From Minisyncoccota bacterium (GTDB taxonomy: Bacteria; Patescibacteriota; Minisyncoccia; Phycocordibacterales; SBAW01): a stretch of 64,000 nucleotides of DNA. Shown in pieces: positions 7,163 to 46,071 of the stretch. The DNA is taken from positions 649 to 64,648 of the forward strand of contig DATKGU010000001.1 of the NCBI GenBank assembly GCA_035510635.1. Reading direction: 5' to 3'. How positions within the stretch are numbered: the stretch's first letter is position 1; every line of letters begins with the position of its first letter. A model generated the notes under the pieces. The model worked only from the letters and a program-made list of their open reading frames with translations. It was not told the DNA's origin and searched no databases. The translations under genes were made by a program, and so were the position numbers.

Positions 7163-7262
7163 GTCCAGTTAGACATAAAAAACCCATCATGGGAATGTCT
7201 AACTGGCCGTACCGGGAAACTGGTACGGGAGGTTTCGGCCTCCACCCGTGGTGGGCTTTTTG
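7163..7262 (+). promoter_or_regulatory. structured leader with four consecutive hairpins, the last a terminator-like stem plus T-run 7 nt before the start codon
   Basis: 12-bp perfect stem ccagttagacat/atgtctaactgg (7165-7206), then ccgtacc/ggtacgg, gagg/cctc, ccacc/ggtgg followed by ctttttgctttc and ATG at 7268. Confidence 0.45.
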
Positions 7263-7267
7263 CTTTC

Positions 7268-10200: not shown

Positions 10201-10591
10201 TTGTCTTACCGACAGTTCAGGGACAACTTGTTATACTCGTTCTCAGCTTAATGCAGTAGTTGGAAATGCTGCAACGCCCTCCGTCCAAATCAGCACCCCA
10301 ACCACCCCCGTCATCTCAACCACCACCCCTCCCACCATATCTATCCAAGGCCAAAATCCAGCCACCATACACGTCGGCGACACTTACACCGACTTGGGAG
10401 CTCTTGTCACCGACAATCAAGGCCACCGCCTGGGTTACACCACCTACCTCAATGGCACACTGGTATCAACTCTCACGATTGATACAAGCACTACAACAAC
10501 TGACACCATAGACTATGTAGCAACCGACACGTGGGGCAACACAGCAACCTCCACACGCACCGTGATAATTGCCCCAGTCTCTTCCCAGTAA
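7268..10591 (+). CDS. secreted tailspike/tail-fibre-like surface protein (1107 aa): signal peptide, pectate-lyase-like beta-helix, N-x-A-V/I-G repeat region, peptidase S74 intramolecular chaperone domain, C-terminal Ig-like (DUF5011-like) domain
   Basis: N-terminal hydrophobic signal (MNKYFFRNISIKIVASWATVIFVFATLLCSPSAALA). YGVKCDGVTDDTAAMQAAANTG matches the pectate_lyase_3/tailspike hallmark. Long runs of NTAVGYNALNANTSG-type repeats. SDQRLK...GFIAQQVQQIFPELV matches the S74 chaperone-of-endosialidase signature. C-terminal ~230 aa are near-identical to the 27815-30433 paralog. ATG 7268 preferred over track start 7145. Confidence 0.8.
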   Translation: MNKYFFRNISIKIVASWATVIFVFATLLCSPSAALAISYTPGQTLNPACTPTDPTCVVTSTTNQAAIFVATSTTATSTFAGNVSVSGNVAIGSLSGILKAVTGVVTTALVNLSGDVTGILGISNGGTGTSTSPTYGKILVGNGSGGYNLMATSSLGIVTSSAVYATNYGVKCDGVTDDTAAMQAAANTGRVVMYPAGVCKFSTLVISSGGIIGEGEMVLPGSSPNLIPGGTVLLSTDTGSGNTISYVADWSTGNPGVFRNFSLLPSSGTVQKSGGVGIYISGNVSGDGYVNNYTAVDNILIRYFPTSISLQDSAAWTISNSNFLFYRVAGIAAGNLIAPDQGDSSIYATTLFNGNGGEWATEGSGILQTSSGGLKISDTKFNGGKYGYQWAQAGQTSDTLISNSSFENISTAAVDFQNTINTSGSPVRFTNIKITGNQFAGDNRDIYLEPISQYLGSSYWDNIVISGNTFYLATLSSIELDTAREFTIVGNTINGNYSTPVGILIASSDDATGFVGANNISGVGTAVVNNSATVTVSSSNSAVGAFNVSGTGAAYQLFGNTALFASTTNSSLAVGAPEAAGWMTASSSPQWRSIAIGAGALATTPINSAATKNIAVGYNALNANTSGFWNTAVGDSALNSNTSGILNVATGMNALNANTTGGYNVATGFQALYTNTTGSDNAAVGYNVLNNNLTAANTVAIGFSAAVGSGSYSNQGGVYIGYQAGDQVQTGSDYNTIIGYNAGYALTTGARNILIGQSTIPTSYNQVKTGSKNISIGNDVAVASSTASNQLDIGNFIYGTGLSGTGASVSPAYIGFGTTTPYASLEVWGSTNTGSTTVFSVVSSASTTLFSVSANGYATLQNSLYQSSDQRLKTDITTLDASSSLAALLALTPVSYTRIDQPELGTNLGFIAQQVQQIFPELVSTSSPTALTPDGTLTLNYTGLIAPIVKAIQAIASEIVSIQNTIAGFANSFTTKQLCLTDSSGTTCYTRSQLNAVVGNAATPSVQISTPTTPVISTTTPPTISIQGQNPATIHVGDTYTDLGALVTDNQGHRLGYTTYLNGTLVSTLTIDTSTTTTDTIDYVATDTWGNTATSTRTVIIAPVSSQ

Positions 10592-10614
10592 GTGACTTGA
10601 TATATCAAGTCACT
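10591..10614. repeat. perfect 24-nt palindrome agtgacttgatatatcaagtcact at the gene junction
   Basis: Overlaps the stop codon of the preceding gene. Possible hairpin or operator. Confidence 0.5.
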
Positions 10615-10623
10615 ACAAAATCA

Positions 10624-11418
10624 ATGAAAACTTTTGTATTAAGTAGCATCACCTTTCTTGTACTTCTCTCTAGTGCAAGCATTGCTTTGGCCTCCACCGG
10701 CACCATCGACCCCACCAACCACTACGCTTGGAGCGACAACGGAGGCTGGGTCAACTGGTATGCCACTGGAGGGAATGTACAAGTAACAGACACCGCACTC
10801 ACTGGCTACATCTGGTCTGCCGGCTTTGGCTGGATTAACCTTGCTCCTACCAATGGAGGAGTACTTAACACCGGAGGCTACCTCAGTGGCTATGCCTGGG
10901 GAGCCAGCACCGGTTGGATTAGCTTCCTTGGTGTCACCATCGACCAACAGGGCGTCTTCCATGGACACACCGTGGCACAAAACATCTTTGGCACCATGAC
11001 CTTTGACTGTGATAACTGCAAGGTCACCACTACGTGGAGACAGGGAAGCACAAACACAAACACAGGCGGTGGTGGCACAGTGAGTGGCCCTCTTGCGGTG
11101 GGGTATACCAACCCTTCGACAGGCTCATCACAAGCCACCACCTCAACTAAACCTCTGCCTCCAACCCTCATACCCACCTCCAAACCCTCTACCATTCCAC
11201 AACCCACCTCTAAACCACCCTCTTCATCTAAGAGCCCAACCTACACCACTCAAACACCTCTTGTCCCCGTATTTCCAACGAATAATGTAAAAACAAATAC
11301 CAAAGGCGGCAACGCAACCCCACCTTTCACTCCTGCATCTGTTGCTCCAAGCTGCACGTGGTTAACTTGCTGGTGGCAATCAATAATTGGATTCTTTGCA
11401 CGGTTGTTTGGGAGGTAA
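10624..11418 (+). CDS. secreted repeat protein with Pro/Thr-rich linker and C-terminal hydrophobic anchor (264 aa)
   Basis: Signal peptide MKTFVLSSITFLVLLSSASIALA. Three G-W-containing repeats (GWVNWY / GFGWINL / STGWISFLG), a PT-rich stretch, and C-terminal CTWLTCWWQSIIGFFARLFGR. ATG 10624 preferred over 10531. Confidence 0.6.
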   Translation: MKTFVLSSITFLVLLSSASIALASTGTIDPTNHYAWSDNGGWVNWYATGGNVQVTDTALTGYIWSAGFGWINLAPTNGGVLNTGGYLSGYAWGASTGWISFLGVTIDQQGVFHGHTVAQNIFGTMTFDCDNCKVTTTWRQGSTNTNTGGGGTVSGPLAVGYTNPSTGSSQATTSTKPLPPTLIPTSKPSTIPQPTSKPPSSSKSPTYTTQTPLVPVFPTNNVKTNTKGGNATPPFTPASVAPSCTWLTCWWQSIIGFFARLFGR

Positions 11419-11627
11419 ATATCAAAGGGTATCATCACTGAGGAGGAATTTACAGCAAAGAAAAACAATTACTCGGCATTTAAGTTTGGGTGGTCTACCC
11501 ATATACCATTAAAGACCGACCAGCTTGCCTTGTAGAAAGGTTCTCTAGGCGTCTAGGGACGTTTCTGATGATGGAGAACGGTGGGGTATGTGGTTTCCTT
11601 CAACCCGCAATCTAATTCTTCTTCTGT

Positions 11628-11680
11628 GAGGGGATTTTATATTTTTATGCCACAAAAATAGTGGTGTAGTAAATCCCCTC
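11628..11680. repeat. 10-bp inverted repeat gaggggattt / aaatcccctc (33-nt spacer) in the intergenic region
   Basis: Seen directly in sequence. Nearby tgcaggtttatatgcaggt direct repeat at 11717-11740. Confidence 0.4.
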
Positions 11681-11945
11681 CAAAAATGCTTTTGTTCGAG
11701 CCATTTTTATATGGTCATTTTTCATGTATCTGCAGGTTTATATGCAGGTACCTAGAAGTATTTGCAACATTTTTTTGGACAAGTCAAATTGCTGTGCTAC
11801 TGTCGAGGAGTCTTGAAGAAAAAAGTCGAAAACAAGGTTCCTGAGATTGAGCTTGAGTGTACACGAGCTTTCGATCTCCTGTTTAAACTTTTAATCGGCA
11901 CGGACGAAAACGAACAAAAGCCCTTATAAAGTAAAGATAATTGTT

Positions 11946-12131
11946 ATGGATAAAAACTATAAGCATCCGTGGCTCTGTCGCGGGTGTGGGGCGAAGTTGA
12001 AGTGGCCGCTGGTGGTCAAAAGCATTTTTGGAAACGGTTGGGTTTGTTTTGGGTGCCAAGTCAAGGAGTGCATAAACGGTGATTTTATTCGCGGGCACGA
12101 GAGAGGGAAAAACATCCCTCCCCGAACATGA
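11946..12131 (+). CDS. small Cys-rich zinc-ribbon-like protein (61 aa)
   Basis: CRGCGAKLKW...CFGCQVKEC gives two CxxC pairs. First gene of a 3-gene overlapping (translationally coupled) module. Confidence 0.5.
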   Translation: MDKNYKHPWLCRGCGAKLKWPLVVKSIFGNGWVCFGCQVKECINGDFIRGHERGKNIPPRT

Positions 12132-12394
12132 GCGCTGGGCGCGGTGTGCGTTCCAGCTGGCTTGAACACAAATTGGACGAGTTGATGCACGACATCAAAG
12201 CATACGCGGAGGCCCATTCGGAAGCGTGGTGGATTTATAGCACGGACATCGAGATGCAATACGCCGAAGGCGACTACGTACAGTTGTGGGACGAACTTGA
12301 GTGGATGCGGGGCAATGTCAAAAATCCAGCGTTTCGAAATATGTTGACCGAGGCGCTGGAGTTAATAAAAGCAATAAATATCGAGTATGAGTGA
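12128..12394 (+). CDS. hypothetical acidic protein (88 aa)
   Basis: 4-nt start/stop overlap with both neighbours. No recognisable motif. Confidence 0.45.
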   Translation: MSAGRGVRSSWLEHKLDELMHDIKAYAEAHSEAWWIYSTDIEMQYAEGDYVQLWDELEWMRGNVKNPAFRNMLTEALELIKAINIEYE

Positions 12395-13055
12395 TGACTG
12401 CGGAGTGCCGCCACTCTTTCCGGGTTTTAGGCCGGAGGACTTCACAAAGGCGTTCTTCAAATATCCGAGGGTGCTGGAGCAGTACTGGCACGTCATGACG
12501 AACAGCGAGGCCAAGGTGCTCACGTTCCTGCTCCGCATGCTTCCGGGTTTCCAAAAAACACAGGATGCTGTGAGCCTGAGCCAGTTCATGGGTGGCGTCG
12601 GCTCCCACAACAAGGGTACGGGTATCAGTCGCACACAGGTTCGGCGGGCAATCGAAGGTTTAGAGGAAAAAGGGTTCATAATCCGAACGCGCCAGCCAGG
12701 GCGGTCGACGGTGTACCGTCTTCGCTACACCGAAGGATTGGCGGTCGAAACTGTGCCAGTGAAAGAAGCTCCCTTGGAGATTCAACGCCTTATACGGCTC
12801 TTCATGCCGGTCGCCGAGCATCGCGTAGAGACCTACCTACAGGACAGGACGCAGATTAAGGCAATCGAGCGGCTGGTTGAGTACTACGGCGTTGAAAAAG
12901 TTGAGGCCTACATCAACACTCTGCCGACGATTCATGGAAAGCGCTTTATGCCGGTCATCACGTCGCCGGTAGAGCTTGAACAGAAACTGCCGAAGTTGGC
13001 TGACGCTATAAAGCGGCGACGAGGCGAAGAGGGGAACAGTCAAATGCTGTTCTGA
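12387..13055 (+). CDS. winged-helix DNA-binding protein, phage replication-organiser/regulator-like (222 aa)
   Basis: SEAKVLTFLLRM...GISRTQVRRAIEGLEEKGFIIRTR looks like a wHTH. Lies in the phage-like module upstream of the serine recombinase. Confidence 0.5.
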   Translation: MSDDCGVPPLFPGFRPEDFTKAFFKYPRVLEQYWHVMTNSEAKVLTFLLRMLPGFQKTQDAVSLSQFMGGVGSHNKGTGISRTQVRRAIEGLEEKGFIIRTRQPGRSTVYRLRYTEGLAVETVPVKEAPLEIQRLIRLFMPVAEHRVETYLQDRTQIKAIERLVEYYGVEKVEAYINTLPTIHGKRFMPVITSPVELEQKLPKLADAIKRRRGEEGNSQMLF

Positions 13056-13355
13056 CCATGCCCATGCAGGGCACAGCAGCCGGTGCACTGCTTGGGCACA
13101 CACCGGGTACAAAAGTATGCACGCCTACCGTGTCCATGCCACAAACAGAACAATAGTTAATAGAACAATAGAAATTAACAATACTGGTTGAGCTTTTTCT
13201 GGAAAGGAAAAGCTGGAAAAGGAAAGTCGGGCATCATCAGTTTCAGAATGTCCGCACACTGTCCGACTTTTTCTTCGCCAGCAAATGCGCCTGTTCCGCG
13301 TCCAGTAGTTCCAACAGTTTACAACTGCTAACAGCCAATTATTATCAGCCAAATA

Positions 13356-13506
13356 ATGAATGACATCGAAGCACTGCGAGACTACATCATTGCCGACGAG
13401 ATACATCGTATCCAATCGCTGTCACACGAGGAGTTAGTGCGTGAGCTCGTCGAACTCAGTTCTCGGGAGATTGAAAAAATGACTGACTCCCAACTCTTGA
13501 TTAAGT
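13356..13506 (+). CDS. possible small ORF (50 aa) immediately upstream of the recombinase gene
   Basis: ATG 13356 to TAG 13504 (MNDIEALRDYIIADEIHRIQSLSHEELVRELVELSSREIEKMTDSQLLIK). Below the ORF-track length cut-off. Candidate Xis/RDF-like or regulator, speculative. Confidence 0.25.
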
Positions 13507-13527
13507 AGAACCCCCACAAGACCATAA

Positions 13528-15273
13528 ATGAAATTAGATAACTCACAACCTAAAAAAGAACTTCGAGCGGCGATCTACCTTAGAGTGTCGACCTTAGCCC
13601 AGTCCGAGGAGGATGCTTACGGCCTCGATGTGCAGGAGGAAAGAGCTCGTAAGTTTTGCACCTCGCAGGGGTACCTCCTCGATGAAGCTCACCTCTATAC
13701 CGACAAAATTTCCGGAGGTACACGACCGGAGGAACGTGAGGGATTATCCAAACTACTGGCCGCTGCCGAGAGAGGGGAGTTTGACTGCATGCTGGTCTAC
13801 AAAATTGACCGCGTTGCCAGAAACCTAAAAATTTTCCTTGGCATTGTTGAGCAGCTGCTGGCACTTAAACTTATCTTCCGCTCTGTCACTGAGCCAATCG
13901 ACACCTCAACCCCGATCGGGGAGATGGTGATGCAAATTTTGGCAATGTTTGCTCAATTTGAGAGAGGCATGATTCGAGACCGCACTATGAGCGGTCGAAT
14001 ACAAGCTGCCAAACATGGTTCTTGGGTGGGAAGCGTGCCTCCGTATGGGTACATCCTTAATAAAACCACCCGCAGGTTGGAGATTAATCCAAAGGAGGGG
14101 AAAATCGTGAAGCAAATATTTAAGTGGCTGGTGGATGACAAGTTGGCCGTCCACGAAATTGAGCGACGACTAAATGCAATGCAGGTGCCGGCACCATGGT
14201 CGACTAAAATTAGTACCAAAGAAACACAAAACGTTTGGCGCAAGTTCAGTGTAATAAGAGTCTTGGTCAATGAAGTACACACTGGCACCTTTTACTACCG
14301 CAAGTTCCGCAAACCGTTTAATGGCTTGACCAGCATTACTGACCCCAGCCGACTACGGCCGAGAGAGGACTGGATAGAGCAACATTGCGACCCCATTATC
14401 ACGACCGAGATGTACGAAGCGGCAAAGCGTCAACTTACACACAACCGAGAGTTTGCCCGACGCAACCGCAAGCATGAGTACCTATTCTCCAAAATCATCT
14501 ATTGTAGTGGGTGCAAACACAAAATGTTCGGTGGATTCCAGCCCGCTAGGGAAGAGTGGGGATACCAAGGTGGTCGGTACTACCACGGTGTGTATCGTAA
14601 GGACGATGCGCTAGGCAAGACAGCGCGATGCCAGTGGTGCCCCAACTACTCCGAGGCACGGCTTGAGCCGGTATGGGACTGCCTTAAAGATATATTAAAG
14701 AACCCGAAGAACATGACACGGCCTTTGGAGAAATATATACATAAGGAAAAAGACCCCCTGCCGGTCAAGCAGCGGCTTCAGGATATTGATACAGCCTTGG
14801 ATACCATAAGCAGAAAACGTGACCGTGTGGACGCGCTCTATATAAATGAGCAACTGGATGAGCAAAAGTACAAGGCCTATCAGGTCGAGTTCAAGCAAGA
14901 CGAACAGCGGCTTAGGGATGAGCAAACGCACCTCCGACAGACCTTGTTAAGCAAGCGAGAGGTTGCTGACCGCCAGAAAGCGGTGCAGCGCGCATACGAA
15001 CAAGTCAAAGCTCGGCTTGATGCCGTTACCTACGACGAGAAAGCTAAAATCGTCTCATACTTCGTTGAGCGCATCACTCTGCACGCCAAAGAGAACTATG
15101 CGGAGGTGGTGTTCAGATTCTCCAAAGGCACAGACATAGGTACCGTAGCTACCTTGCAAGGAGACAAAGCCTTCCCGCTGGTGCACAAAATCAACACCAT
15201 CCCCGAGAGGGAGCGGAGAGCCACTCTCATGGCAACGAACCCCGAGATGTTCGTGTCGAAGGTGCTGGTGTAA
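13528..15273 (+). CDS. large serine recombinase (phage integrase/transposase-type, 581 aa)
   Basis: N-terminal resolvase catalytic domain (AAIYLRVSTLAQ..., VYKIDRVARN), recombinase domain, Cys-containing zinc-ribbon region (CSGCKHK...CQWC), coiled-coil C-terminus. Confidence 0.9.
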   Translation: MKLDNSQPKKELRAAIYLRVSTLAQSEEDAYGLDVQEERARKFCTSQGYLLDEAHLYTDKISGGTRPEEREGLSKLLAAAERGEFDCMLVYKIDRVARNLKIFLGIVEQLLALKLIFRSVTEPIDTSTPIGEMVMQILAMFAQFERGMIRDRTMSGRIQAAKHGSWVGSVPPYGYILNKTTRRLEINPKEGKIVKQIFKWLVDDKLAVHEIERRLNAMQVPAPWSTKISTKETQNVWRKFSVIRVLVNEVHTGTFYYRKFRKPFNGLTSITDPSRLRPREDWIEQHCDPIITTEMYEAAKRQLTHNREFARRNRKHEYLFSKIIYCSGCKHKMFGGFQPAREEWGYQGGRYYHGVYRKDDALGKTARCQWCPNYSEARLEPVWDCLKDILKNPKNMTRPLEKYIHKEKDPLPVKQRLQDIDTALDTISRKRDRVDALYINEQLDEQKYKAYQVEFKQDEQRLRDEQTHLRQTLLSKREVADRQKAVQRAYEQVKARLDAVTYDEKAKIVSYFVERITLHAKENYAEVVFRFSKGTDIGTVATLQGDKAFPLVHKINTIPERERRATLMATNPEMFVSKVLV

Positions 15274-15285
15274 AAAAGCTGAATT

Positions 15286-15606
15286 TTACTCCGAGTCTTT
15301 CCTCCGCTGAATAGCACGTAGCACCGTAGCGGCTACAAAATCTTTGCGTGCCTCTCCCAATACGGGCAACGCAGCCAGTACAGACGCATTGTTTGTTGGG
15401 AGTAAGTCCACTTTTCCTTCGTTGTAGTTAGTAAGTTGCGTCAGGAACTCATCGAGCCACGATGGTGTTACGGTGAGCACTTCGTCAAAGTCGATTTGGA
15501 TCGCCTCATCAGGATTAAGTTGCGGACGGATAGCATTAAATGCCTCTAGCCCTGCTGGACGAGAAACAAGTACGGAGCCAAATTTTTTAAGTTGAATGGT
15601 TTGCAT
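15286..15606 (-). CDS. STAS-like (DUF4325-type) anti-sigma-antagonist-fold protein (106 aa)
   Basis: Small alpha/beta protein, IDFDEVLTVTPSWLDEFL similar to the SpoIIAA/RsbV phosphorylation loop. Adjacent to and co-oriented with the GHKL ATPase gene. Confidence 0.6.
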   Translation of the reverse strand: MQTIQLKKFGSVLVSRPAGLEAFNAIRPQLNPDEAIQIDFDEVLTVTPSWLDEFLTQLTNYNEGKVDLLPTNNASVLAALPVLGEARKDFVAATVLRAIQRRKDSE

Positions 15607-15618
15607 ATCTAACGTGTC

Positions 15619-16344
15619 TTAAAATAGTATAACAGCATATGTGCCACGGATATTTCCGTCAGTCATCTTAATGTGCATCAATCCGGGGCCGGTAGGGATG
15701 TTAACGAGGCCGATGCCCGAACGGAACAAGAGTCCAATTTCCTTTGACTCTACAACATTGCGGACCACTTTGAGTCCGTTGCCACGCTTCTCCGGGTTTC
15801 TTCCCGAAACAATTTCCGTAAACGCTACCGTTAGAGCATCGACATCGGTAGTAAGATTTGGTCGCACTTGTTGGAGTGTTGCTTTTACGCCACGTCCGCG
15901 GTCTGCAAGAACTATCACCCGCTTTGCAATGTCATATGCATAAAATACACCTGGCACATCAGGCCAGTTACCAACGTTGTGTGCGAAAGAGTTATCGCCA
16001 ATTTCTGCTGCAACCAGTGTGAGGAGCGATGCTAAGTCTTCGGGCATATGCCCCGTTTTCTGCAATTCTATCCCCATCTTAGCCACTCGACTGGTGAAGC
16101 GATCTGGTCGTTCGCAATAATATTCACTTGGAAGTGCTGGCGGTATGGCGCTTGTTGCCCATGCTAATCCAAGCATCTGAAGGTCGAGAGCAAAACTATT
16201 AAGGTCTCGTAGAGCATAATAGCGGTGCTTTCCTCCACTCCGTTCAGCACGAAGCTTCCCGGATTTCTCCCAGTTGCGTAGGGTTTGAACGGATACATTA
16301 AGTATCTTTGCCGCCTCACCTATGCGTACTTTTCCAGTATTCAC
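15619..16344 (-). CDS. excisionase/MerR-type HTH fused to GHKL (anti-sigma-factor-kinase-like) ATPase (241 aa, GTG start)
   Basis: N-terminal IGEAAKILNVSVQTLRNWEKSGKLRAERSGGKHRY resembles HTH_17/excisionase. Bergerat-fold boxes EIGDNSFAH (ExxxNxxxH), ADRGRGV (DxGxG), RGNGLKVV (GxGL). Confidence 0.75.
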   Translation of the reverse strand: MNTGKVRIGEAAKILNVSVQTLRNWEKSGKLRAERSGGKHRYYALRDLNSFALDLQMLGLAWATSAIPPALPSEYYCERPDRFTSRVAKMGIELQKTGHMPEDLASLLTLVAAEIGDNSFAHNVGNWPDVPGVFYAYDIAKRVIVLADRGRGVKATLQQVRPNLTTDVDALTVAFTEIVSGRNPEKRGNGLKVVRNVVESKEIGLLFRSGIGLVNIPTGPGLMHIKMTDGNIRGTYAVILF

Positions 16345-16362
16345 CCTGTCAGATTAGGGTCA

Positions 16363-16396
16363 AAACCTATAAAAGTCAAGATTTGTTTATAGGTTT
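16363..16396. promoter_or_regulatory. palindromic operator AAACCTATAAA-N12-TTTATAGGTTT, 19 nt upstream of the HTH-GHKL gene
   Basis: Perfect 11-bp inverted repeat. Half-site TAGGTTT recurs in a second palindrome and again at 17821-17831. Confidence 0.6.
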
Positions 16397-16426
16397 ATGT
16401 GTAAAACTTACAAAAACAGCCCTTAT

Positions 16427-16451
16427 TGTAGGTTTAACAGGGAAACCTACA
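16427..16451. promoter_or_regulatory. second operator palindrome TGTAGGTTT-N7-AAACCTACA
   Basis: 9-bp inverted repeat sharing the TAGGTTT half-site. Confidence 0.55.
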
Positions 16452-16625
16452 ACCACTGAAATGGCCTTACTATGGGTTCTAAAATTGAGACTTTGGAGGT
16501 CATAATCTTAAAGAGCCGATTCTGTATGGATATTTGTTGGGTTTTGCTATCCTCCTTTCCTAAAAGGAGGAACACAAAAACTCCCAGGGTGTTTTAGCGG
16601 AACAACTGCCAAGAAGTAAAATAAC

Positions 16626-16659
16626 AAAAAAGCTCGGATTTCAATCCGAGCTTTTTTGT
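16626..16659. terminator. bidirectional intrinsic terminator aaaaaagctcggatt tcaa tccgagctttttt
   Basis: 9-bp stem flanked by A-run and T-run. Confidence 0.65.
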
Positions 16660-16695
16660 GATATCGTCTGTGGCGGAACTGTATAGGAGCACCAC

Positions 16696-16908
16696 ATGAG
16701 CGGATATCGAGGCGTCGAGCTTGATTTTGGCGCATATAATTGGCCTCAAAATCGGGTCGAGTTTGACTTGGTGGCGTCGCAAGGCAGCAGATCGGGTTGC
16801 GCCACGACAACACCCCGCACAACCTTTAAGCCCGCGGCGCATGTCACTCCAAGGTTTCGCAAGCGGGACAAGAAGTCCACCAGCGTCGGTAAGAAGAGAA
16901 AGAAATAA
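16696..16908 (+). CDS. possible small basic protein (70 aa)
   Basis: ATG preceded by AGGAG at -8, unlike core genes here that lack SD. C-terminal KR-rich tail. No family recognised. Confidence 0.3.
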   Translation: MSGYRGVELDFGAYNWPQNRVEFDLVASQGSRSGCATTTPRTTFKPAAHVTPRFRKRDKKSTSVGKKRKK

Positions 16909-17096
16909 GGAGAGAGGCCAAAGCGACCCAGGATTATTCCGGTGTCGCTTTTTTAAATGTTGGACCTGCGAGGTCGAACAATTCTCCATATTTTAGAGGG
17001 CTAAAATAACCTTATTAAACAAGGGTCTTGACGACTTGACAAATCTATTGCTTTAACATATAATAGGTAGGAAAGCTCATTCAAAGGAGAGAGCAG

Positions 17097-17600
17097 ATGT
17101 TTCTAAGCTGGAAGTTCAATGAGGAAAAAGAACCTCGTGGGTGGGTTGAAAGGTTCACCAACGGCACTGGTCCTGACACTAAAAAAGAAATACAGCGGAG
17201 ACGACACCTACTTGAAAACGAACGTCCACCGTATCGTGTATACACAGTTGAATGGATGGATACTGATGCAACCATCTGGACTATCGAAAAGTGGTATGTG
17301 AAGGAAGTTACCCTCGCATACATTCTGAAGAAAAATGGTGAGCCTATCACTGGTGGTGGCACCATCCACTTGCCCCGCTTTGTGTATAAATATCCAGATG
17401 GAAAAACGGGTGAGGTGATAATGGAGACATACGCACTTATCCCGTCTTGGTTAGAGATAGAGCCCTTTAAAGGTCAAACCATGATCTGGGGTTTGCGTAC
17501 TGATGGCACTCGCCGCGATGCTGGAAATATATGTGAAAATTTCCTTTGCCAAGAGGTGGCTAAGGACGACAACCTTCACCCTGTTGTGAGATTGGGCTAG
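17097..17600 (+). CDS. hypothetical protein (167 aa)
   Basis: Strong SD (aaggagag) 8 nt upstream. No recognisable motifs. Last gene of the island. Confidence 0.5.
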   Translation: MFLSWKFNEEKEPRGWVERFTNGTGPDTKKEIQRRRHLLENERPPYRVYTVEWMDTDATIWTIEKWYVKEVTLAYILKKNGEPITGGGTIHLPRFVYKYPDGKTGEVIMETYALIPSWLEIEPFKGQTMIWGLRTDGTRRDAGNICENFLCQEVAKDDNLHPVVRLG

Positions 17601-17742
17601 TAGAACACTTGACTGAACTGTAAAGTCTAAATGTAATACAGATCTTTTTCTCTCTTGTCATAACGCCGGAGATTCCGGTATCGGAAATAAAGCCCACCGC
17701 AAGGTAGGGCTTTCGTATTTATGGGGAAGAAGATTATATAGT

Positions 17743-17800
17743 TTGACTTATGGGAGCTAATCGCTTATATTGCTCGTAGCCCTCAAGGGCTCCTTTTTTC
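17743..17800 (+). promoter_or_regulatory. promoter TTGACT-17-TATATT followed by hairpin agccc/gggct plus T-run, upstream of rpsZ
   Basis: Hexamers 17743-17748 and 17766-17771, hairpin 17777-17791 with ccttttttc. An orphan copy of the TTTATAGGTTT half-site lies at 17821-17831. Confidence 0.45.
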
Positions 17801-17891
17801 TAGACGGTGCCGCTTAGTCCTCCTTTATAGGTTTGGGCGAGGCATACCTCCAGAATCATAACCCCGGGGTTACGGGGTGCATCACTCACAT

Positions 17892-18077
17892 ATGGCAAAA
17901 AAGTCTACAGTAGCACGCTCAAACCGCGCACCCAAGTTTAAATCTCGGGTGGTTAATCGTTGCTTCCGCTGTGGTCGCAAGCGCGCCTTTATGCGCGACT
18001 TTGGCATGTGCCGCGCCTGCTTCCGCGAAGCCGCAAATGAAGGATTGATCCCTGGTGTCAGAAAGTCATCTTGGTAA
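17892..18077 (+). CDS. rpsZ: 30S ribosomal protein S14 type Z (zinc-binding, 61 aa)
   Basis: CxxC...CxxC motif (CFRCGRK...CRAC), typical short S14. ATG 17892 preferred over track 17877. Confidence 0.93.
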
Positions 18078-18117
18078 TTCACTAAACCCTACACCCTAAG
18101 ATCTATACCCTAATTAT

Positions 18118-18504
18118 ATGATTACTGACCCTATTGCAGACATGCTGGTACGCATCCAAAACGCCTCGATGGCGGGGAAGGACCGCGTCTCTATGCCGCG
18201 CTCACAGATGAAGCTCGCCATCGCCGAGATACTCAAGCGCGAGGGCTACGTGAGCGAGGTAGACAAAAAATCAAAAAACAACGACCTCTCGCTCATGCTT
18301 TCCTACAAAAACGGCCGCCCGGCGTTTGGCGGATTTAAACGCGTCAGCAAACTCTCCCGCCGCATGTACATGGGCGTGCGCGACATCAAACCGGTTAAGC
18401 GCGGCCATGGTCTTCTGGTGCTCTCGACTCCCGCAGGCATCCTCACAGGCAAAGAGGCGCAGATTAAGCGCGTTGGCGGCGAGGCCCTGTTCGAAATTTG
18501 GTAA
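18118..18504 (+). CDS. rpsH: 30S ribosomal protein S8
   Basis: S8 family (MITDPIADMLVRIQNA...). Confidence 0.95.
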   Translation: MITDPIADMLVRIQNASMAGKDRVSMPRSQMKLAIAEILKREGYVSEVDKKSKNNDLSLMLSYKNGRPAFGGFKRVSKLSRRMYMGVRDIKPVKRGHGLLVLSTPAGILTGKEAQIKRVGGEALFEIW

Positions 18505-18510
18505 ACCATT

Positions 18511-19044
18511 ATGTCACGACTTGCTAAACGACCCATTGCACTGCCCGCTAAAACTGAACTCACGTTCAAGGCTAACGAGCTTTCTGTAAAAGGCCCTAAA
18601 GGTACGCTCACCAAAGCGGGGCACCGCCTCATTGGTATCGAGAACGTGCCGGAGGGTGTGCAGGTATCCACCAAGGCAGACACGCTTGAGGCTCGCGCAC
18701 TTGTGGGCACCTACGCCAGCCACGTGCGCAACATGCTCGAGGGTGTTACCAAAGGTTTTACTAAAAAACTTTTAGTCGAAGGCGTCGGCTACAAGTGGGA
18801 GGTGCAGGGCAAGACGCTCAACCTCGCACTCGGATTTTCTCACCCGGTAAAAATGGACATCCCCGAGGGGCTCACCGTTAAGGCCGAGAAGAACGCCCTC
18901 ATCATTGATGGATTTGATAAAGAGCTTGTCGGACAATTTGCTGCCAACGTGCGTGCACTCAAAAAGCCGGAGCCGTACAAGGGCAAAGGTATCCGCTACG
19001 AGGGCGAGGTCATCCGCCGCAAGCAGGGTAAGAAGGCTGCATAA
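18511..19044 (+). CDS. rplF: 50S ribosomal protein L6
   Basis: L6 family, conserved position. Confidence 0.95.
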   Translation: MSRLAKRPIALPAKTELTFKANELSVKGPKGTLTKAGHRLIGIENVPEGVQVSTKADTLEARALVGTYASHVRNMLEGVTKGFTKKLLVEGVGYKWEVQGKTLNLALGFSHPVKMDIPEGLTVKAEKNALIIDGFDKELVGQFAANVRALKKPEPYKGKGIRYEGEVIRRKQGKKAA

Positions 19045-25507: not shown

Positions 25508-26140
25508 ATGGAAGAAACATCGAACAAGACCGCCACGGTTGACCCAAAAAATTTGCATCTCCACATCAAGCTCGGTGTCTCCGGTGCTGCCGAGACAGGC
25601 CATTGCGGTGTTGATGCATACGACAAAGGTCTTGAGCTTGGTCGTGAGATAGCCAAGCAAGGCGCGGTATGTGTCACGGGCGCCACCACCGGCTTCCCGC
25701 TATGGGCGGCGATGGGTGCAAAATCGGCCGGAGGGTTTGTCATTGGCTTCTCACCTGCAAGCTCCGAGAAGGAACATATCGAGCAATACAACTTGCCGGT
25801 GGAGTACCACGACCTCATCGTGTACACCGGCTTTGGCTATCCGGGCCGCGATCTTATTTTTACACGCTCGGTTGACGGCATGTTTTTTGGATGCGGGCGT
25901 ATAGGCACCATACATGAGTTTACGATTGCGTTTGAGGACAACAAGCCGCTTGGTGTGTATGAGGGCGGATGGCCCACCTCGGAGGAGATAAAAAATATTT
26001 TGGCAAACGGCCACCGCCCCAACGAGCACATCCGCTTTGGCGCCGACCCAAAGGCGTTGGTAGGGGAGATACTCGCATTGATAAAAGAGGACAAAATAAA
26101 CAGAGCCTCGTTTAGGTTCGAAAACCCCGACAACGCTTGA
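25508..26140 (+). CDS. LOG/TIGR00725-like Rossmann-fold nucleotide-binding protein
   Basis: Gly-rich Rossmann signatures (VSGAAETGHCGVD, VTGATTGFP). ATG 25508 preferred over 25406, which lies inside the inverted-repeat spacer. Confidence 0.5.
   Translation: MEETSNKTATVDPKNLHLHIKLGVSGAAETGHCGVDAYDKGLELGREIAKQGAVCVTGATTGFPLWAAMGAKSAGGFVIGFSPASSEKEHIEQYNLPVEYHDLIVYTGFGYPGRDLIFTRSVDGMFFGCGRIGTIHEFTIAFEDNKPLGVYEGGWPTSEEIKNILANGHRPNEHIRFGADPKALVGEILALIKEDKINRASFRFENPDNA
26103..26140 (+). repeat. left direct repeat (att-like), the 3' end of the LOG-like gene
   Basis: agagcctcgtttaggttcgaaaaccccgacaacgcttga, about 29/38 identical to 27447-27485. Both encode ...SFRFENPD-x-A stop. Confidence 0.7.
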
Positions 26141-26299
26141 AATAAGCCCTTGTCTTATCCACAGCAAGACTTGCTAATTCCAGTATTAGGTGTATAATTA
26201 GATTTAGCTATATAGTAATTATAGCCCTATGGAATTAGAGTTTTTTCAATTCTAGTCCAATAGAATTAGAAAAGTGTTAATTCCAGTACATAATTTTAC

Positions 26300-27445
26300 A
26301 TGACAAAAACAAGACCAAAAGGACCTTTTAATCTGCCCAAACTTCCTCCCAAGGTATCCTATGCTGACATTGTTGAGCATATTGCTAAGGCGCACACAGC
26401 ACTCGCCCGTCTTGATGAAATGTTGAAGCATATGGGGAATCTATCTCACCTAGAGAGCACCTTTTTTACTCGCGAAGCAGTGTTGAGTTCTAAAATAGAA
26501 GGGACTCAAGTAACACTTGAAGATGTCCTTAAAGAAGAAGCTGAAGGAAAAAAAGAAGTTAACGAAAATACCGAAAGGCAGCGGGATATTGTTGAAGTTC
26601 TAAACTACAGGAGGGCTCTTCGTCTCGGTCTAAAAATGATTGGGGAAGGGGAGTCCCTTGCTGAAAATAACGTAAAAGAGCTTCACAAAATTCTCTTGCA
26701 ATCTGAAAGAGGAAGGACAAGAGCACCCGGGCAATTTCGTAGAGAGCAAGTATATATAGCACCAAAAGGTACGCCTATGGACGAGGCGCGATATATACCC
26801 CCGAGCCCAAATGATATTTCGGAACTGTATAGCAATTTTGATCGGTATCTCAATACGGAAAATGCTGAGCGAGATCCCCTCGTTCAAATTGCAGTGGCAC
26901 ACTATCAATTTGAAGCTATTCACCCATTTAAAGATGGGAACGGGCGTGTCGGCAGATTATTGATACCCCTTTTTCTCTATAAAAGAAAGATTATTGCTCA
27001 TCCTTTTATTTATATAAGTAAGTACTTTGAGGAACACAGACGTGATTATTACGATTTATTGGCCGACGTAAGCTATGAGAGGGCGTGGACAGCCTGGATA
27101 CGGTTTTTCCTACATGGGCTTTGTGAACAAGCCAATGAAGCTACTGAGCTTGGGAGGGCAATTATCAAATTGCGGGATGAGTACCGGTCTCACTTGGCCG
27201 AGTTACACTCGACCTATGCTTTTAATCTCCTTGATGCAATTTTTGAGAGACCATATTTCACCCCGGTCCTTATAGGCAAATTGGCTCATATTAAGAATCC
27301 CCAAACGGTATTAACGTTGATTGGTAAATTTTTAGAGGCTAAAATTATTACTGACTTAACTCCAAAGAAAAAACGCAATAAAATATATGAATTTCATCAC
27401 CTCACAAAGTTATTGCAAGGAAGAGATAAAAAAGGCTCAGACTAA
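26300..27445 (+). CDS. Fic/DOC family protein (AMPylation or related transferase)
   Basis: Canonical Fic motif HPFKDGNGRVGR. AT-rich gene and upstream region with aattag/aattcc repeats. Confidence 0.9.
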   Translation: MTKTRPKGPFNLPKLPPKVSYADIVEHIAKAHTALARLDEMLKHMGNLSHLESTFFTREAVLSSKIEGTQVTLEDVLKEEAEGKKEVNENTERQRDIVEVLNYRRALRLGLKMIGEGESLAENNVKELHKILLQSERGRTRAPGQFRREQVYIAPKGTPMDEARYIPPSPNDISELYSNFDRYLNTENAERDPLVQIAVAHYQFEAIHPFKDGNGRVGRLLIPLFLYKRKIIAHPFIYISKYFEEHRRDYYDLLADVSYERAWTAWIRFFLHGLCEQANEATELGRAIIKLRDEYRSHLAELHSTYAFNLLDAIFERPYFTPVLIGKLAHIKNPQTVLTLIGKFLEAKIITDLTPKKKRNKIYEFHHLTKLLQGRDKKGSD

Positions 27446-27446
27446 T

Positions 27447-27485
27447 AGAGTCTCGTTCCGCTTCGAAAACCCCGACTCAGCATAA
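27447..27485 (+). repeat. right direct repeat: duplicated, synonymously diverged 3' end of the LOG-like gene
   Basis: agagtctcgttccgcttcgaaaaccccgactcagcataa encodes RVSFRFENPDSA-stop versus RASFRFENPDNA-stop at 26103-26140. Confidence 0.7.
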
Positions 27486-27543
27486 AAAGTTATCCCCACA
27501 CCCCGCGCTTCCACCTCATATATAATGGTACAATGAGTGCATC

Positions 27544-27630
27544 ATGAAATCGCTCCTTGCTGGCCTTACACTTACGGCTTTAGGCTTGGTGCATATGGTG
27601 GCCGGGGGGGGGTCAGCTTGTAGCGTCTGA
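27544..27630 (+). CDS. 28-codon signal-peptide-like ORF containing a G9 homopolymer, out of frame with the downstream surface-protein gene
   Basis: MKSLLAGLTLTALGLVHMVAGGGSACSV-stop. G-run at 27604-27612. Removing one G fuses it in frame to the ORF continuing into 27815-30433. Confidence 0.6.
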   Translation: MKSLLAGLTLTALGLVHMVAGGGSACSV

Positions 27631-27814
27631 TATATCCTCTCTCTTTACTCACGCGCCCTTCGTAGCCTCTGGCGGAGTAGGGCCAACCGTTGCCGTTACA
27701 TCTCCTCAACCTTGGCACGCAAAAGGCACCTCGCAAACTGCCAGTGTATTCAACGCCACGGTAGCTATTGCATCTACTACCCCCACTCAAACTGTTCCAC
27801 CAGTACAAAGCACT

Positions 27815-30433
27815 ATGATATATCATAGTGCGTCCAGTACTCCAACCACTCCTGCTGTTGGACCTACGAGGTCGAACACAACATCCAATTCCTCCTCCAG
27901 CAAACTCACTACCGCCTATGTCACTCATGGTGAGCTTACTGCCGCTATTCAACAAGCTATTGGTACACTCCCTGCAATCACAGGAGGTTCAGGACAATCA
28001 ACCTCTCCCTCAATTCAAGCACAGTTGGATGCCCTACAAAGGGAAGTAGCCCTTACCAACAGCATCAACAACCTTGCGCCCACTAACAATGTGGCACTTA
28101 CTATTTCTAACCCTACTATTACGGGAGGTACTATCTCCAACGCCGCACTCCAAGGAAATACCCTCTCTGCCGGAGCTGCTACCTTAGGAGCTACTACTAT
28201 TGCCGGTGGTCTTACCGCCACCGGTGGTGTCACTTTTGACAGTGCGACGACGACTAACTTCTTCACAACCACTGCAAACTCGACAAATCTTTTCACAGTC
28301 AATGCTACTACAACAAGTACCTATTCGTCACTTTACAATACTTCCAGCCTGGGTAAGGGTTACGAAATTGATGGCGGCACAGTCTTGCAAGCGAGTTCAA
28401 CGCTGTACAATTTGTCTATAGGTCACCATCTTATCGGCCTTGCTCCTTATACTTTAGTTAATAGTAATACTTTCGTTGGCGAAGGGGCGTTTGATGTCAA
28501 TAACGGAAGTACCGACAATACTGCCGTGGGCGCCAATGCACTCAATTCGCTTTCAGGTCCAAGTCCAACTAGCGGCGGAAGCAATTCGGCTTTTGGTCAG
28601 GCATCGCTCTACAAATTGACTAGTGGAGGTAATAATTCCGCTTTCGGTTCGCTTGGCATGTTTAATGCCACAAGTAGCAGCAATAACGTTGCTGTTGGTT
28701 ATGGTGCTCTTTACGGCAACGCGGGAACCGGCGGCACGTATGACGACAATACCGCTATTGGTGTGAATTCTCTTTGGTCGGAGACGACTGGTAGCTACAA
28801 CACCGCTTTGGGATACTCCAGTCTTTATGCAAACACTACAGGAGGTAGTAATGTTGCTGTCGGCGCACCGGCCCTTCAGGCAAACACGACGGGTAGCCAC
28901 AATATTGCGGTAGGGATTGCTCTCCCATCAAATATCAGTGGTTCACAAAATGTCGCTATTGGTGATAATGCATTAAATAATTCTACTGCATCTTCGTACA
29001 ACACCGCCGTCGGCGTTAGTTCTTTGTATTCTGACACAAGCGGTCAGTATAATGTGGGCCAAGGCGTCCAATCTCTAAACTCTAACACGACGGGCAGCAA
29101 CAGTGCAGCCATTGGGTATCAGGCGCTCTATAACAACACTAATAGTGACCAAAATACCGCCATAGGCGCTGGAGCTGGGTACGGCAACGGTTCTTATACG
29201 AGTGGATTGAATGTTCTCATTGGGGTTAATGCAAATCGAAATGCAGCGAACAGTGCGAATTACAACACGTTTGTGGGCTACGCAGCTGGATATAACAATC
29301 AAGCTCAAGGTAATACAGGACTCGGGTATCAGGCTGGCTACGATATCACCACAGGTTATTACAATCTTGTTCTCGGTTATTATCCGACCACTGGAGTCGG
29401 GCTTACAAGTGGAAACAACAATATACTTTTTGGCTATGATGTAAGACCTGTCTCGCGGGGTGGTAGCAATCAGCTCAATATAGGCAATCTCATCTTTGGA
29501 ACTGGATTGGGTTCAGGTACGACTCTCTCAACAGGTAGCCTAGGCATCGGCACCACCTCACCCGCTACACTCCTCGAACTTGGTGGTAGTACTGCTAATC
29601 TCACTATGGATGGTTACAAGAATTGCACAGGCTTTACCTCCAACGCCAACGGCCTCGTGGCTTGCACTGCGTCAGACCAACGGTTGAAACAGGGCATTAC
29701 GCCGCTTGATGCCTCAAGCACTCTATCGGCAATTAACGCACTCACCCCCGTGTCCTTCTTCTGGAGGCCAGAGACAGACAGAGGCACACAACAGCAGTAC
29801 GGTCTCATCGCTCAAGCAGTACAACAAATCTTCCCTAATCTTGTTTCTACGAGCTCACCAACAGACTTAACTCCTGATGGCACGCTTACCGTTAACTACG
29901 ACGGCCTCATTGCGCCGATAATTATTGCAATCCAAACACTCAGCAGGGAAGTTGCTTCCCTTACAGCAACCGTGGCGGGGTTTGCAGAAAGTTTTACGAC
30001 GAAAGTTATTAATTCTCAAAAAGATAATACCCAGCAGCTTTGTATCTCCGACGGTCCCAGTGACTCCAATCCTCTGTGTATTACTAAATCACAACTCGCT
30101 AATATTCTCTCTGGTCAATCATCCCCATCGGTCCAAGTGAGCCAATCAACCACCCCCGTCGTCTCCACCTCAACCCCTCCCACCATCAATATCCAAGGTC
30201 AAAACCCTGCCACCATCCACATCGGCGACACCTACACCGACTTGGGTGCCATAGTCACCGACAACCAAGGCCACAACTTGGGTTACACCACCTACCTTAA
30301 CGGTGTGTTAGTTTCTACACTCAGCATTGATACAAGCACCACAACAACCGACACAATAGACTACGTAGCCACTGACACCTGGGGGAATACGAGTACGTCA
30401 ACCCGAACGGTAGTCATAGAAACAGCAAACTAA
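27815..30433 (+). CDS. tail-fibre-like surface protein paralog (872 aa from ATG 27815): repeat region, peptidase S74 intramolecular chaperone domain, C-terminal Ig-like domain
   Basis: NTAVG/NVAVG-type repeats. SDQRLKQGITPLD...YGLIAQAVQQIFPNLV S74 signature. C-terminal IQGQNPATIHIGDTYTDLGAIVTDNQGH...VATDTWGNT near-identical to 7268-10591. Frame is open upstream to 27584 with no in-frame ATG. Confidence 0.8.
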   Translation: MIYHSASSTPTTPAVGPTRSNTTSNSSSSKLTTAYVTHGELTAAIQQAIGTLPAITGGSGQSTSPSIQAQLDALQREVALTNSINNLAPTNNVALTISNPTITGGTISNAALQGNTLSAGAATLGATTIAGGLTATGGVTFDSATTTNFFTTTANSTNLFTVNATTTSTYSSLYNTSSLGKGYEIDGGTVLQASSTLYNLSIGHHLIGLAPYTLVNSNTFVGEGAFDVNNGSTDNTAVGANALNSLSGPSPTSGGSNSAFGQASLYKLTSGGNNSAFGSLGMFNATSSSNNVAVGYGALYGNAGTGGTYDDNTAIGVNSLWSETTGSYNTALGYSSLYANTTGGSNVAVGAPALQANTTGSHNIAVGIALPSNISGSQNVAIGDNALNNSTASSYNTAVGVSSLYSDTSGQYNVGQGVQSLNSNTTGSNSAAIGYQALYNNTNSDQNTAIGAGAGYGNGSYTSGLNVLIGVNANRNAANSANYNTFVGYAAGYNNQAQGNTGLGYQAGYDITTGYYNLVLGYYPTTGVGLTSGNNNILFGYDVRPVSRGGSNQLNIGNLIFGTGLGSGTTLSTGSLGIGTTSPATLLELGGSTANLTMDGYKNCTGFTSNANGLVACTASDQRLKQGITPLDASSTLSAINALTPVSFFWRPETDRGTQQQYGLIAQAVQQIFPNLVSTSSPTDLTPDGTLTVNYDGLIAPIIIAIQTLSREVASLTATVAGFAESFTTKVINSQKDNTQQLCISDGPSDSNPLCITKSQLANILSGQSSPSVQVSQSTTPVVSTSTPPTINIQGQNPATIHIGDTYTDLGAIVTDNQGHNLGYTTYLNGVLVSTLSIDTSTTTTDTIDYVATDTWGNTSTSTRTVVIETAN

Positions 30434-40670: not shown

Positions 40671-41035
40671 TGGTGGAGATGGCGCGAGTTGAACGCGCGT
40701 GCAATGAAGGTTTGCAGAGAGCTTCTACAAGGTGTAGGACATTTTAGTTTTCTTAGGCTCGGATGTTTAAAATGAGCAAAATCATTTTGAGCCGCAGATT
40801 GCAAGTTTCAACGTGTGGTCGAATCAACCCCACTCGCTATATCCTGTTTTATAACATCCTACATCCGCGATCAGGTCACGCGGAGAAGATGCGAGTTGCT
40901 TAGGCTAATGCGAAAGCGAACTCGTTCGCCGAGAAATACGGCGATGCAACTGACTTTGCAGTTATGGTTACCGGATTTTTAAGAAGTTCCGGACTTCTAC
41001 CTCGCACTCAATGCATGAGCCTCATTGTCTAGGCC
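40671..41035 (-). ncRNA. ssrA: tmRNA (ssrA)
   Basis: tRNA-like ends: 5' GGGGAUG pairs with 3' CAUCUCC giving a G3:U70 Ala identity pair, T-arm cgcgc-GUUCAAC-gcgcg, ACCA-3'. Internal tag ORF ...GCG AAC GAG UUC GCU UUC GCA UUA GCC UAA = ANEFAFALA-stop. Adjacent to smpB. Confidence 0.85.
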
Positions 41036-41049
41036 CGGCATCCCCATAG

Positions 41050-45999: not shown

Positions 46000-46071
46000 G
46001 GGCGCGTAGCTCAGCGGTAGAGCAGCCGTCTTATACACGGCCGGTCCCTGGTTCGATCCCAGGCGCGCCCA
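46000..46071 (+). tRNA. tRNA-Ile, gene-encoded anticodon UAU (reads AUA)
   Basis: Cloverleaf: acceptor GGGCGCG/CGCGCCC, D-arm GCUCAGCGGUAGAGC, anticodon stem GCCGU/ACGGC with loop CUUAUAC, T-arm CCUGG-UUCGAUC-CCAGG, discriminator A. Overall resembles tRNA-Ile2 but has TAT rather than CAT. Confidence 0.8.

Follow-up and report, generated by a model that had tools for sequence, protein, structure and literature searches.

A candidate poly-G phase switch in the signal-peptide region of a fibre-like surface gene of a Paceibacterota bacterium

Introduction

The opa genes of Neisseria form a surface multigene family in which CTCTT pentamer repeats in the leader-peptide region turn each copy ON or OFF independently. 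Here, we analyse a run of nine guanines (G9) that interrupts the signal-peptide region of a gene for a fibre-like surface protein in a 64-kb stretch of a Minisyncoccota (Paceibacterota) metagenome-assembled genome (MAG; contig DATKGU010000001.1, positions 649 to 64,648), referred to below as the window. We regard the run as a candidate slipped-strand phase switch, now in the OFF state, and would put the probability of this reading at roughly 0.65. Bacteria in the Candidate Phyla Radiation (CPR, or Patescibacteria) are mostly uncultivated and ultra-small, and are thought to live attached to host cells; to our knowledge, diversity-generating retroelements aside, little has been learned about the ways in which this apparatus for attachment is varied.

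Related switches have been described in other bacteria. Homo-guanine tracts in the signal-peptide region of Neisseria pilC give rise to RecA-independent on/off switching (PMC5354566). An account of Campylobacter and Helicobacter describes poly-G/C contingency loci in which 5' intragenic homopolymers in surface-structure genes cause reversible truncation (PMC8355987), and a report on L. monocytogenes describes a 5' poly-A tract in inlA where a frameshift leaves an 8-amino-acid product (PMC2831843). Within the CPR, a putative surface protein of a Gracilibacterium carries a hypervariable in-frame 9-mer (PTD) repeat, for which slipped-strand mispairing and phase variation have been discussed (PMC6851277). 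No account of phase variation by a frame-shifting homopolymer in CPR/Patescibacteria turned up in a literature search; this Gracilibacterium repeat was the nearest case, and the only one from the CPR in which instability of a simple sequence in a putative surface protein had been discussed in these terms.

Results

A G9 tract separates a signal-like peptide from the fibre frame

The 5' part of the locus comprises the following elements, given as window positions with strand and type of evidence:

27544-27630, + strand: 28-codon open reading frame (ORF) with a Sec-type signal-like peptide (M-K, hydrophobic core SLLAGLTLTALGLVHMV, small-residue AGGG), followed by five out-of-frame codons and TGA (sequence, orthologue N-termini)
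27604-27612, + strand: G9 homopolymer, candidate slipped-strand switch (sequence, homologous runs in relatives)
27613-27814, + strand: segment coding for the mature N-terminus (QLVASDISS...PWHAKGTSQTASVFNATVAIAS...) (open frame without ATG, GTG or TTG, homology, dN/dS, codon score)
27815-30433, + strand: 872-amino-acid ORF, the fibre body, HUD02429.1 (annotation, paralogue identity, repeats)

Direct reading of the sequence showed that ATG 27544 opens a 28-codon ORF (MKSLLAGLTLTALGLVHMVAGGGSACSV) that ends at TGA 27628-27630, and that residues 1-23 of its signal-like N-terminus have a mean hydropathy of 1.1-1.9. The G9 run at 27604-27612 lies inside this signal-peptide coding region, and a repeat within an ORF is a hallmark of contingency loci. 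The fibre frame is open from 27584, immediately after TAG 27581-27583, to the stop at 30431-30433, which amounts to 949 open codons without a second lesion. Its earliest ATG, GTG or TTG is ATG 27815, the start of the 872-amino-acid ORF, and the segment 27613-27814 is left without a start codon in the nine-G state. Frame choice was also apparent from codon-usage scoring, where the best frame was the signal-peptide frame for 27544-27603 and the main-ORF frame for 27613-27814, with the change exactly at the tract.

The length of the run toggles the frame, again as in contingency loci. Deletion of one G (8 G) yields a 962-amino-acid fusion reading ...HMVAGGGQLVASD..., and addition of two (11 G) a fusion of 963 amino acids; both lengths are ON. 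By contrast, nine and ten G are OFF, the former giving the 28-amino-acid product and the latter a product ending ...AGGGVSL*, with 26 amino acids before the stop. A preliminary description of this DNA had proposed the 28-codon secretion-signal ORF with its G9, the fibre frame open without an ATG from 27584 until the 872-amino-acid ORF at 27815, and the joining of the two by loss of one G or gain of two. All its coordinates were borne out by direct reading, and the fusion produced by loss of one G is precisely the one that two orthologues (P0126 and P0128) encode. It had also credited a paralogue in the same window with a signal peptide, and a signal-like N-terminus was indeed seen for that gene (7268-10588).

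Orthologues encode the fused protein

An exhaustive HMMER search was performed against 1.84 billion representatives, using the start-less frame (window 27584-28483) as query. Only eight proteins were retrieved at E <= 1e-3. P0126, from a Minisyncoccia MAG, and P0128, from two European Nucleotide Archive (ENA) metagenomes, start with MKSLLA(T/A)(L/F)TLTALGLAH..AGGGQLIAS in one frame and are then collinear with the fibre frame through ...PWHASG.SQTAAVFNAT.... A more distant, full-length protein of 1121 amino acids, P0127, has a different signal peptide of its own and aligns internally to the segment upstream of ATG 27815. Because P0126 and P0128 are collinear with this region and P0127 aligns to it internally, 27613-27814 is coding sequence rather than leader and, to judge from these sequences, the fused reading is the real gene.

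The N-terminal module was found on different C-terminal bodies, that of P0125 being a NosD/beta-helix protein. Other protein searches added little: a word-index search with the fused N-terminal 457 amino acids was swamped by adhesin-repeat matches (Bacteroidota and others) and gave no orthologue of the N-terminus, the same search with residues 1-195 gave three matches only, and exact-protein look-ups found no match for the 872-amino-acid ORF or for the neighbouring HicA, and only the known Joint Genome Institute (JGI) contig for the neighbouring Fic protein.

Tract length and phase differ among relatives

The tract was compared by a tract-independent scan of a species-genome collection, with a pattern derived from the motif WHA.G.SQTA.VFNA, and in the DNA behind the HMMER proteins. 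The alleles are listed by locus, source, run and phase relative to the fibre frame:

Window; Paceibacterota MAG; GCC + G9; +1, OFF
L002/L010; JGI 3300026502 (Ga0255350_1011240); G9, 100% identical to the window over 2658 bp; +1, OFF
L004; ENA ERZ25039529; G10 (GCG + 9); +1, OFF, with the MIYHS Met again taken as gene start
L003/L008; MAG SPRUCE 529 (GCA_049997855.1), contig 12 (JBEKSG010000012.1); G9 (GCG + 8); in frame
L005 and L006; two different ENA samples; G9; in frame
L009; MAG SPRUCE 529, contig 7 (JBEKSG010000007.1); G8; -1, OFF

An uninterrupted G8-G10 run stands at the same codons in 5/5 distinct genes of the family. All three phase states (in frame, +1 and -1) occur among these relatives, which are orthologues and paralogues, not strains of one species. 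In the -1 allele, L009, the signal peptide ends in AGGVHS*, and the downstream frame runs on without a stop through more than 1400 codons, as far as the locus extends. A single MAG holds L008 (ON) and L009 (OFF) on separate contigs; the two share promoter and signal peptide and differ in their upstream genes, and one genome bin thus appears to carry two copies in opposite states. Across about 87 kb (the window and the related loci), the only G or C runs of at least seven were the tract and a poly-C in the promoter of the same gene. The placement of the run at the frame junction, together with G8-G10 at the same site in every related gene recovered, is far beyond chance. Comparison of the tract across related genomes, the check put forward in the preliminary description, favours a switch through the in-frame, +1 and -1 lengths at a conserved run. 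The phase variation suggested there gains support as a candidate from the conserved tract, the ON, +1 and -1 alleles, the intact OFF ORFs and the fused orthologues.

Two further comparisons added no allele. Among 185,579 species genomes, 0 matched the exact flanks joined by any number of G, so that the MAG or its species is not represented there with this sequence. The contig of a near-identical strain (L001, 99.25% identical, with all differences outside the fibre gene) begins at 29473, short of the tract, and was uninformative on strain-level variation and on selection.

Some of the related loci are incomplete. The N-terminal module stops after ...YVTKADLPA at the 3' ends of L005 and L006, where other members go on with ...LTAAIQQAIG, and the fragment L007 departs from the family at a GIGTT motif (~720-870). 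Either the copies are truly truncated or fragmentary, or the short-read assemblies broke at repeats of the family.

Several points weigh against a switch. Five genes from about four organisms are all that was recovered, and with eight representatives at E <= 1e-3 among 1.84 billion, proteins with this N-terminus are rare. G9 is the sole G or C run of at least seven in the window, but by itself it is statistically unremarkable; because a G9 or C9 also appeared in 15/100 dinucleotide shuffles of the window, the presence of such a run is in itself no proof, and it is position and conservation that count. Further, the two assemblies that agree on G9, the MAG and JGI Ga0255350_1011240, probably come from the same sample and are not independent. 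On the L004 contig (ENA contig_134799), a ClpB/ClpC-like gene is split into a 94-amino-acid fragment and an 814-amino-acid remainder by a frameshift near a C4 run (~7185-7235). This frameshift and the Flye-style contig name indicate that the G10 may be a long-read indel error, and L004 was rejected as strong independent evidence of an OFF allele.

The last two points also bear on a possible miscount of the homopolymer, in which the true run would be 8 (or 11) G, the gene an ordinary in-frame one and the ninth G an artefact. Long G runs are error-prone, at least one related assembly (L004) shows signs of indel errors, the gene is otherwise intact, and the MAG and JGI contigs, being 100% identical, may share reads, which makes their agreement weak. 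Against a miscount, G9 was found in two different assemblies, and none of the window ORFs examined stood out as a broken housekeeping gene. A second independent error would also be needed in SPRUCE 529, with its one -1 copy and its one in-frame copy of the tract, and mixed read populations would themselves be a signature of phase variation. Moreover, short-read assemblies, the platform assumed here, seldom carry a consensus error at a 9-mer. Sequencing error, which the preliminary description had named as the main alternative, is thus retained as a rival but has become less likely with G9 in two assemblies, even if these may go back to the same reads; we consider it improbable.

Selection appears to maintain the run and the orphaned segment

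The signal-peptide DNA is 65-87% identical among the five genes, and 6/8 conserved fourfold-degenerate sites vary. Since the tract has stayed uninterrupted despite such saturated flanking synonymous sites, the run itself seems to be maintained by selection, although the sample of five genes is small. GGG is a minor codon, accounting for 12.6% of Gly codons in the long ORFs of the window, and GGGGGG was present in 0/105 Gly-Gly pairs of window ORFs; the tract encodes Gly-Gly-Gly. When the segment from the tract to ATG 27815 was compared with orthologues in the ON frame, ratios of nonsynonymous to synonymous substitution (dN/dS) were 0.11-0.30, with dS values of 0.75-2.4. The window compared with the others gave 0.24-0.30, and comparisons that involved OFF alleles were in the same range. 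These values point to purifying selection on the orphaned segment.

Such conservation is difficult to reconcile with a recent, effectively fixed loss-of-function frameshift, that is, an incipient pseudogene at a mutational hotspot with no reversible switching. The present out-of-frame state, the truncated ORF as the only NCBI annotation, and a second fibre paralogue (7268-10588) that could make this copy dispensable would all fit a fixed lesion. However, 949 codons carry no second lesion and those of L009 are open for more than 1400, the orphaned segment is under apparent purifying selection, and an uninterrupted tract amid saturated synonymous sites is unexpected for a mere liability. We therefore judge a fixed frameshift to be unlikely as well.

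Recoding was also considered, in which the nine-G allele would be expressed by transcriptional slippage or ribosomal frameshifting and the tract would tune the level of expression. The shift needed, -1 nucleotide in the mRNA, is a common slippage product, and runs of at least nine identical bases can give reiterative transcription. This is, however, established mainly for A/T runs, and G/C runs slip less. Moreover, a dedicated recoding site should hold a fixed out-of-frame length, whereas the relatives have in-frame, +1 and -1 DNA alleles, and neither a stimulatory structure nor an Rfam element was found near the tract (Rfam matched no RNA element in 27300-27950). Recoding is accordingly very improbable.

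The annotated start lies in a palindrome

The annotated start of the fibre gene is part of one further element:

27810-27831, + strand: perfect 22-nucleotide palindrome GCACTATGATATATCATAGTGC, which holds the annotated start ATG 27815 and encodes TMIYHS (sequence, RNA fold)

The palindrome folds as RNA with -16.6 kcal/mol (z = -6.45), and ATG 27815 lies in its 5' arm, where the AUG would be buried. Copies were found in L004 (2996-3017), in which the outer G-C pair is changed to A-T and the palindrome is kept, and in L007 (284-305). Between the window and L007, 24 nucleotides at the palindrome are 100% identical, compared with ~73% in the flanking coding DNA, and the fibre homology of L007 begins exactly at the palindrome and its ATG, immediately preceded by the stop codon of an unrelated FtsX-like permease gene. 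The palindrome might mark a boundary for recombination or for cassettes, serve as an operator, or form a hairpin that masks an internal AUG.

The annotation as it stands would have translation start at ATG 27815 and yield an 872-amino-acid protein without a signal, the upstream 28-codon ORF being unrelated. Both the NCBI and the JGI gene callers choose this codon, and L007 begins exactly there, right after the permease gene; L007 is, however, an 891-bp contig that breaks off at the repeated GIGTT motif and may be a fragment or a chimera. The 202 nucleotides upstream are protein-coding by homology and dN/dS, and the full-length family members and the paralogue have signal peptides. In addition, ATG 27815 is an unlikely start, also as a rescue start, because it lacks a Shine-Dalgarno sequence, lies in the stable hairpin and is not conserved as Met in the orthologues (L003, L005 and L009). 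Shine-Dalgarno comparison of the two candidate starts was itself uninformative, as most window genes have no such sequence. Taking this together, the annotated start is the least probable of the explanations weighed.

The signal-peptide region is preceded by a conserved upstream module

Upstream of ATG 27544, homology between the loci extends over two elements:

27489-27517, + strand: conserved upstream box GTTATCCCCACACCCCGCGCTTCCACCTC, the 5' edge of the shared expression module (pattern count, orthologue conservation)
27521-27534, + strand: -10-like hexamers TATAAT (27521-27526) and TACAAT (27529-27534) (direct reading)

The pattern CACACCCC-N-CCACCTC occurs twice in the window, at the fibre gene and upstream of the paralogue (7017-7035), with 0 expected in shuffles. 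In the upstream regions of all five orthologues (A/C)TTATCCCCAC is unchanged, and the homology between loci starts there. The box GTTATCCCCAC is probably a promoter or regulatory element, a function suggested by this conservation. The -10-like hexamers lie 9-17 nucleotides upstream of ATG 27544, and GGTA(C/T)A is conserved in the orthologues; a consensus promoter scan called no full sigma-70 site at 27521-27534. If the hexamers act as a -10 element, their position would leave room for little or no leader.

A second homopolymer, C10 or C8, was observed in the promoter of relatives (L005, 138-147; L006, 118-127; L003, 2947-2954, equivalent to L008, 5968-5975). It lies between the GTTATCCCCAC box and the -10 region, and the equivalent stretch of the window is interrupted (CCCCACACCCC). 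This poly-C may be a second, transcriptional, slippage site.

The fibre protein has a chaperone domain and an Ig-like domain

The 872-amino-acid ORF corresponds to NCBI HUD02429.1, a 'tail fiber domain-containing protein' from a TPA (Third Party Annotation) MAG named 'Candidatus Paceibacterota bacterium', where it lies on a contig of 67,680 bp, and is the only feature in the NCBI annotation at this locus. Two Pfam domains were recognized in it:

29672-29845, + strand: Peptidase_S74 intramolecular-chaperone domain, starting with SDQRLK (Pfam PF13884, E = 2.4e-15)
30185-30415, + strand: C-terminal bacterial surface Ig-like domain (Pfam PF16403, E = 3.8e-8)

The Peptidase_S74 match scored 57 bits against a cutoff of 22. 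SDQRLK corresponds to residues 710-715 of the fused protein, and we take it to be the Ser...Lys autocleavage motif of endosialidase-type chaperone domains. The middle of the protein contains repeats that resemble the heads of trimeric adhesins, according to the names and matches of the protein search, and a weak similarity was found to the phage long-tail-fibre distal subunit 6f45 (E = 0.004). The signal-like N-terminus, the adhesin-type repeats, the S74 domain and the bacterial surface Ig-like domain would fit a protein exposed at the surface. The paralogue at 7268-10588 has the same two Pfam domains and shares 49% identity with the fibre protein over ~600 C-terminal residues, while the N-termini are unrelated. 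The region is best explained as the 5' end of one gene for a secreted fibre-like surface protein of a Paceibacterota (CPR) bacterium.

Two other assignments of the protein were rejected. 'Trimeric autotransporter adhesin', the JGI name for some homologues, does not fit a protein with no YadA-type anchor in the Pfam scan, a C-terminus made up of S74 and Ig-like domains and a similarity confined to the head-like repeats. A prophage tail fibre was rejected for this copy. The genes around it encode a beta-CASP RNase, a SLOG protein, Fic, HicB/HicA, rplT-rpmI-infC, SecY, adk, map and ndk, and three pattern scans of viral contigs (palindrome, N-terminal motif and tract) gave 0 matches. Because the neighbours are cellular or toxin-antitoxin genes and the viral scans were negative, we regard the protein as a cellular secreted fibre.

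The paralogue has a different setting. In the ribosomal-protein operon, rplE (6264-6818) and rplF (18511-19044) are separated by an ~11-kb insert (~6820-18500), whose cargo includes, beside the paralogous fibre gene, genes for a large serine recombinase (13528-15273) and a Phage_rep_O-like protein (12387-13055) as well as a MerR/excisionase-like gene (15619-16344); the insert has the appearance of an integrated mobile element or of what remains of a prophage. A full-length LOOT RNA (Rfam RF03000, 76.7 bits versus a gathering score of 46.4) was found at 7118-7243 (+); the shared upstream box (7006-7040) precedes it, and the signal-peptide start of the paralogue, at 7268, follows. ATG 7145, which opens the 1148-amino-acid ORF of the paralogue, falls within this RNA, and the start at 7268 is therefore more likely.

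A 63-nucleotide direct repeat with 73% identity (26080-26142 and 27425-27487) flanks the Fic gene (26300-27445), and a second copy (...RVSFRFENPDSA) of the SLOG gene's 3' end (...RASFRFENPDNA) follows Fic, as though Fic had come on an element inserted into the end of the SLOG gene. The 5' module of the fibre gene begins 2 nucleotides past the second copy of this repeat. The housekeeping RNA genes of the window are a tmRNA (40671-41045, -) and tRNA genes at 46000-46071 (+) and 51734-51820 (-).

Discussion

In the switch that we propose, translation would initiate at ATG 27544. With 8 or 11 G, Gly-Gly-Gly would form the small-residue end of the signal peptide and the 962- or 963-amino-acid fibre would be exported (ON). 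At the assembled length of 9 G, or at 10 G, the ribosome would stop three to six codons past the tract and the fibre would be either not made or not exported (OFF), with presumably nothing useful produced from ATG 27815. Replication slippage would toggle these states reversibly, possibly at high frequency, and would give a population with both fibre-bearing and fibre-less cells. The predicted protein would consist of a Sec signal peptide, a Thr/Ser/Pro-rich linker, adhesin-like repeats, the S74 self-cleaving chaperone domain and the Ig-like domain; to go by what is known of the family, the S74 domain would assist trimerisation after export and cleave itself at SDQRLK. A role at the cell surface or in host attachment seems plausible for such a protein.

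The conserved 5' module and the two copies in opposite states suggest a small contingency gene family in symbiont-like bacteria. A wider version of this idea is speculative and, in our opinion, doubtful: a portable Paceibacterota/Minisyncoccia module, made up of the GTTATCCCCAC box, the -10 region, the MKSLLA signal peptide, the poly-G and sometimes the promoter poly-C, would sit on several fibre bodies per genome and form an independently switching multigene host-attachment contingency system of episymbiotic CPR bacteria, with the palindrome ~200 nucleotides downstream as an exchange boundary for promoter-less cassettes such as L007.

If the proposed switch is real, a conserved homopolymer on a secreted fibre would represent a simple second mechanism of variation in the CPR, and the fibre family would be a host- or phage-exposed structure under fluctuating selection. 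In practical terms, HUD02429.1 is N-terminally truncated, its real start and signal peptide having been missed, and automatic pipelines can be expected to repeat the same truncation at every OFF allele.

Comparison with described systems places the locus, as a candidate, among known contingency genes, with differences in each case. Phage tail-fibre and endosialidase S74 proteins share with it an S74 domain starting with SDxRxK and an N-terminal module on varied C-terminal bodies; unlike these, the present protein has a Sec signal-like peptide, cellular neighbours (Fic, HicAB, infC-rpmI-rplT) and an Ig-like domain after S74. The opa genes differ in having a pentanucleotide repeat and in encoding outer-membrane beta-barrels, as opposed to a homopolymer and a fibre. 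Campylobacter and Helicobacter genomes contain many tracts of this kind, whereas here there is one G/C run of at least seven in 64 kb. The 8-amino-acid product described in the inlA report is analogous to the 28-amino-acid product of the nine-G allele. The Gracilibacterium repeat varies in copy number and stays in frame, in contrast to the frame-shifting homopolymer considered here as an on/off candidate.

The closest analogue is Neisseria pilC. Both have a G run in the signal-peptide region of an adhesion-related surface gene, putatively so in the present case, and both have paralogous copies that can be in different states, as in L008 and L009. They differ in that pilC belongs to Proteobacteria of the human mucosa and encodes a pilus tip adhesin, while the present gene encodes an S74 fibre in a CPR/Paceibacterota bacterium from an environmental metagenome; further, switching of pilC has been demonstrated experimentally, and the poly-G switch described here is proposed from sequence. 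Most likely, the locus represents a classical mechanism in a new lineage.

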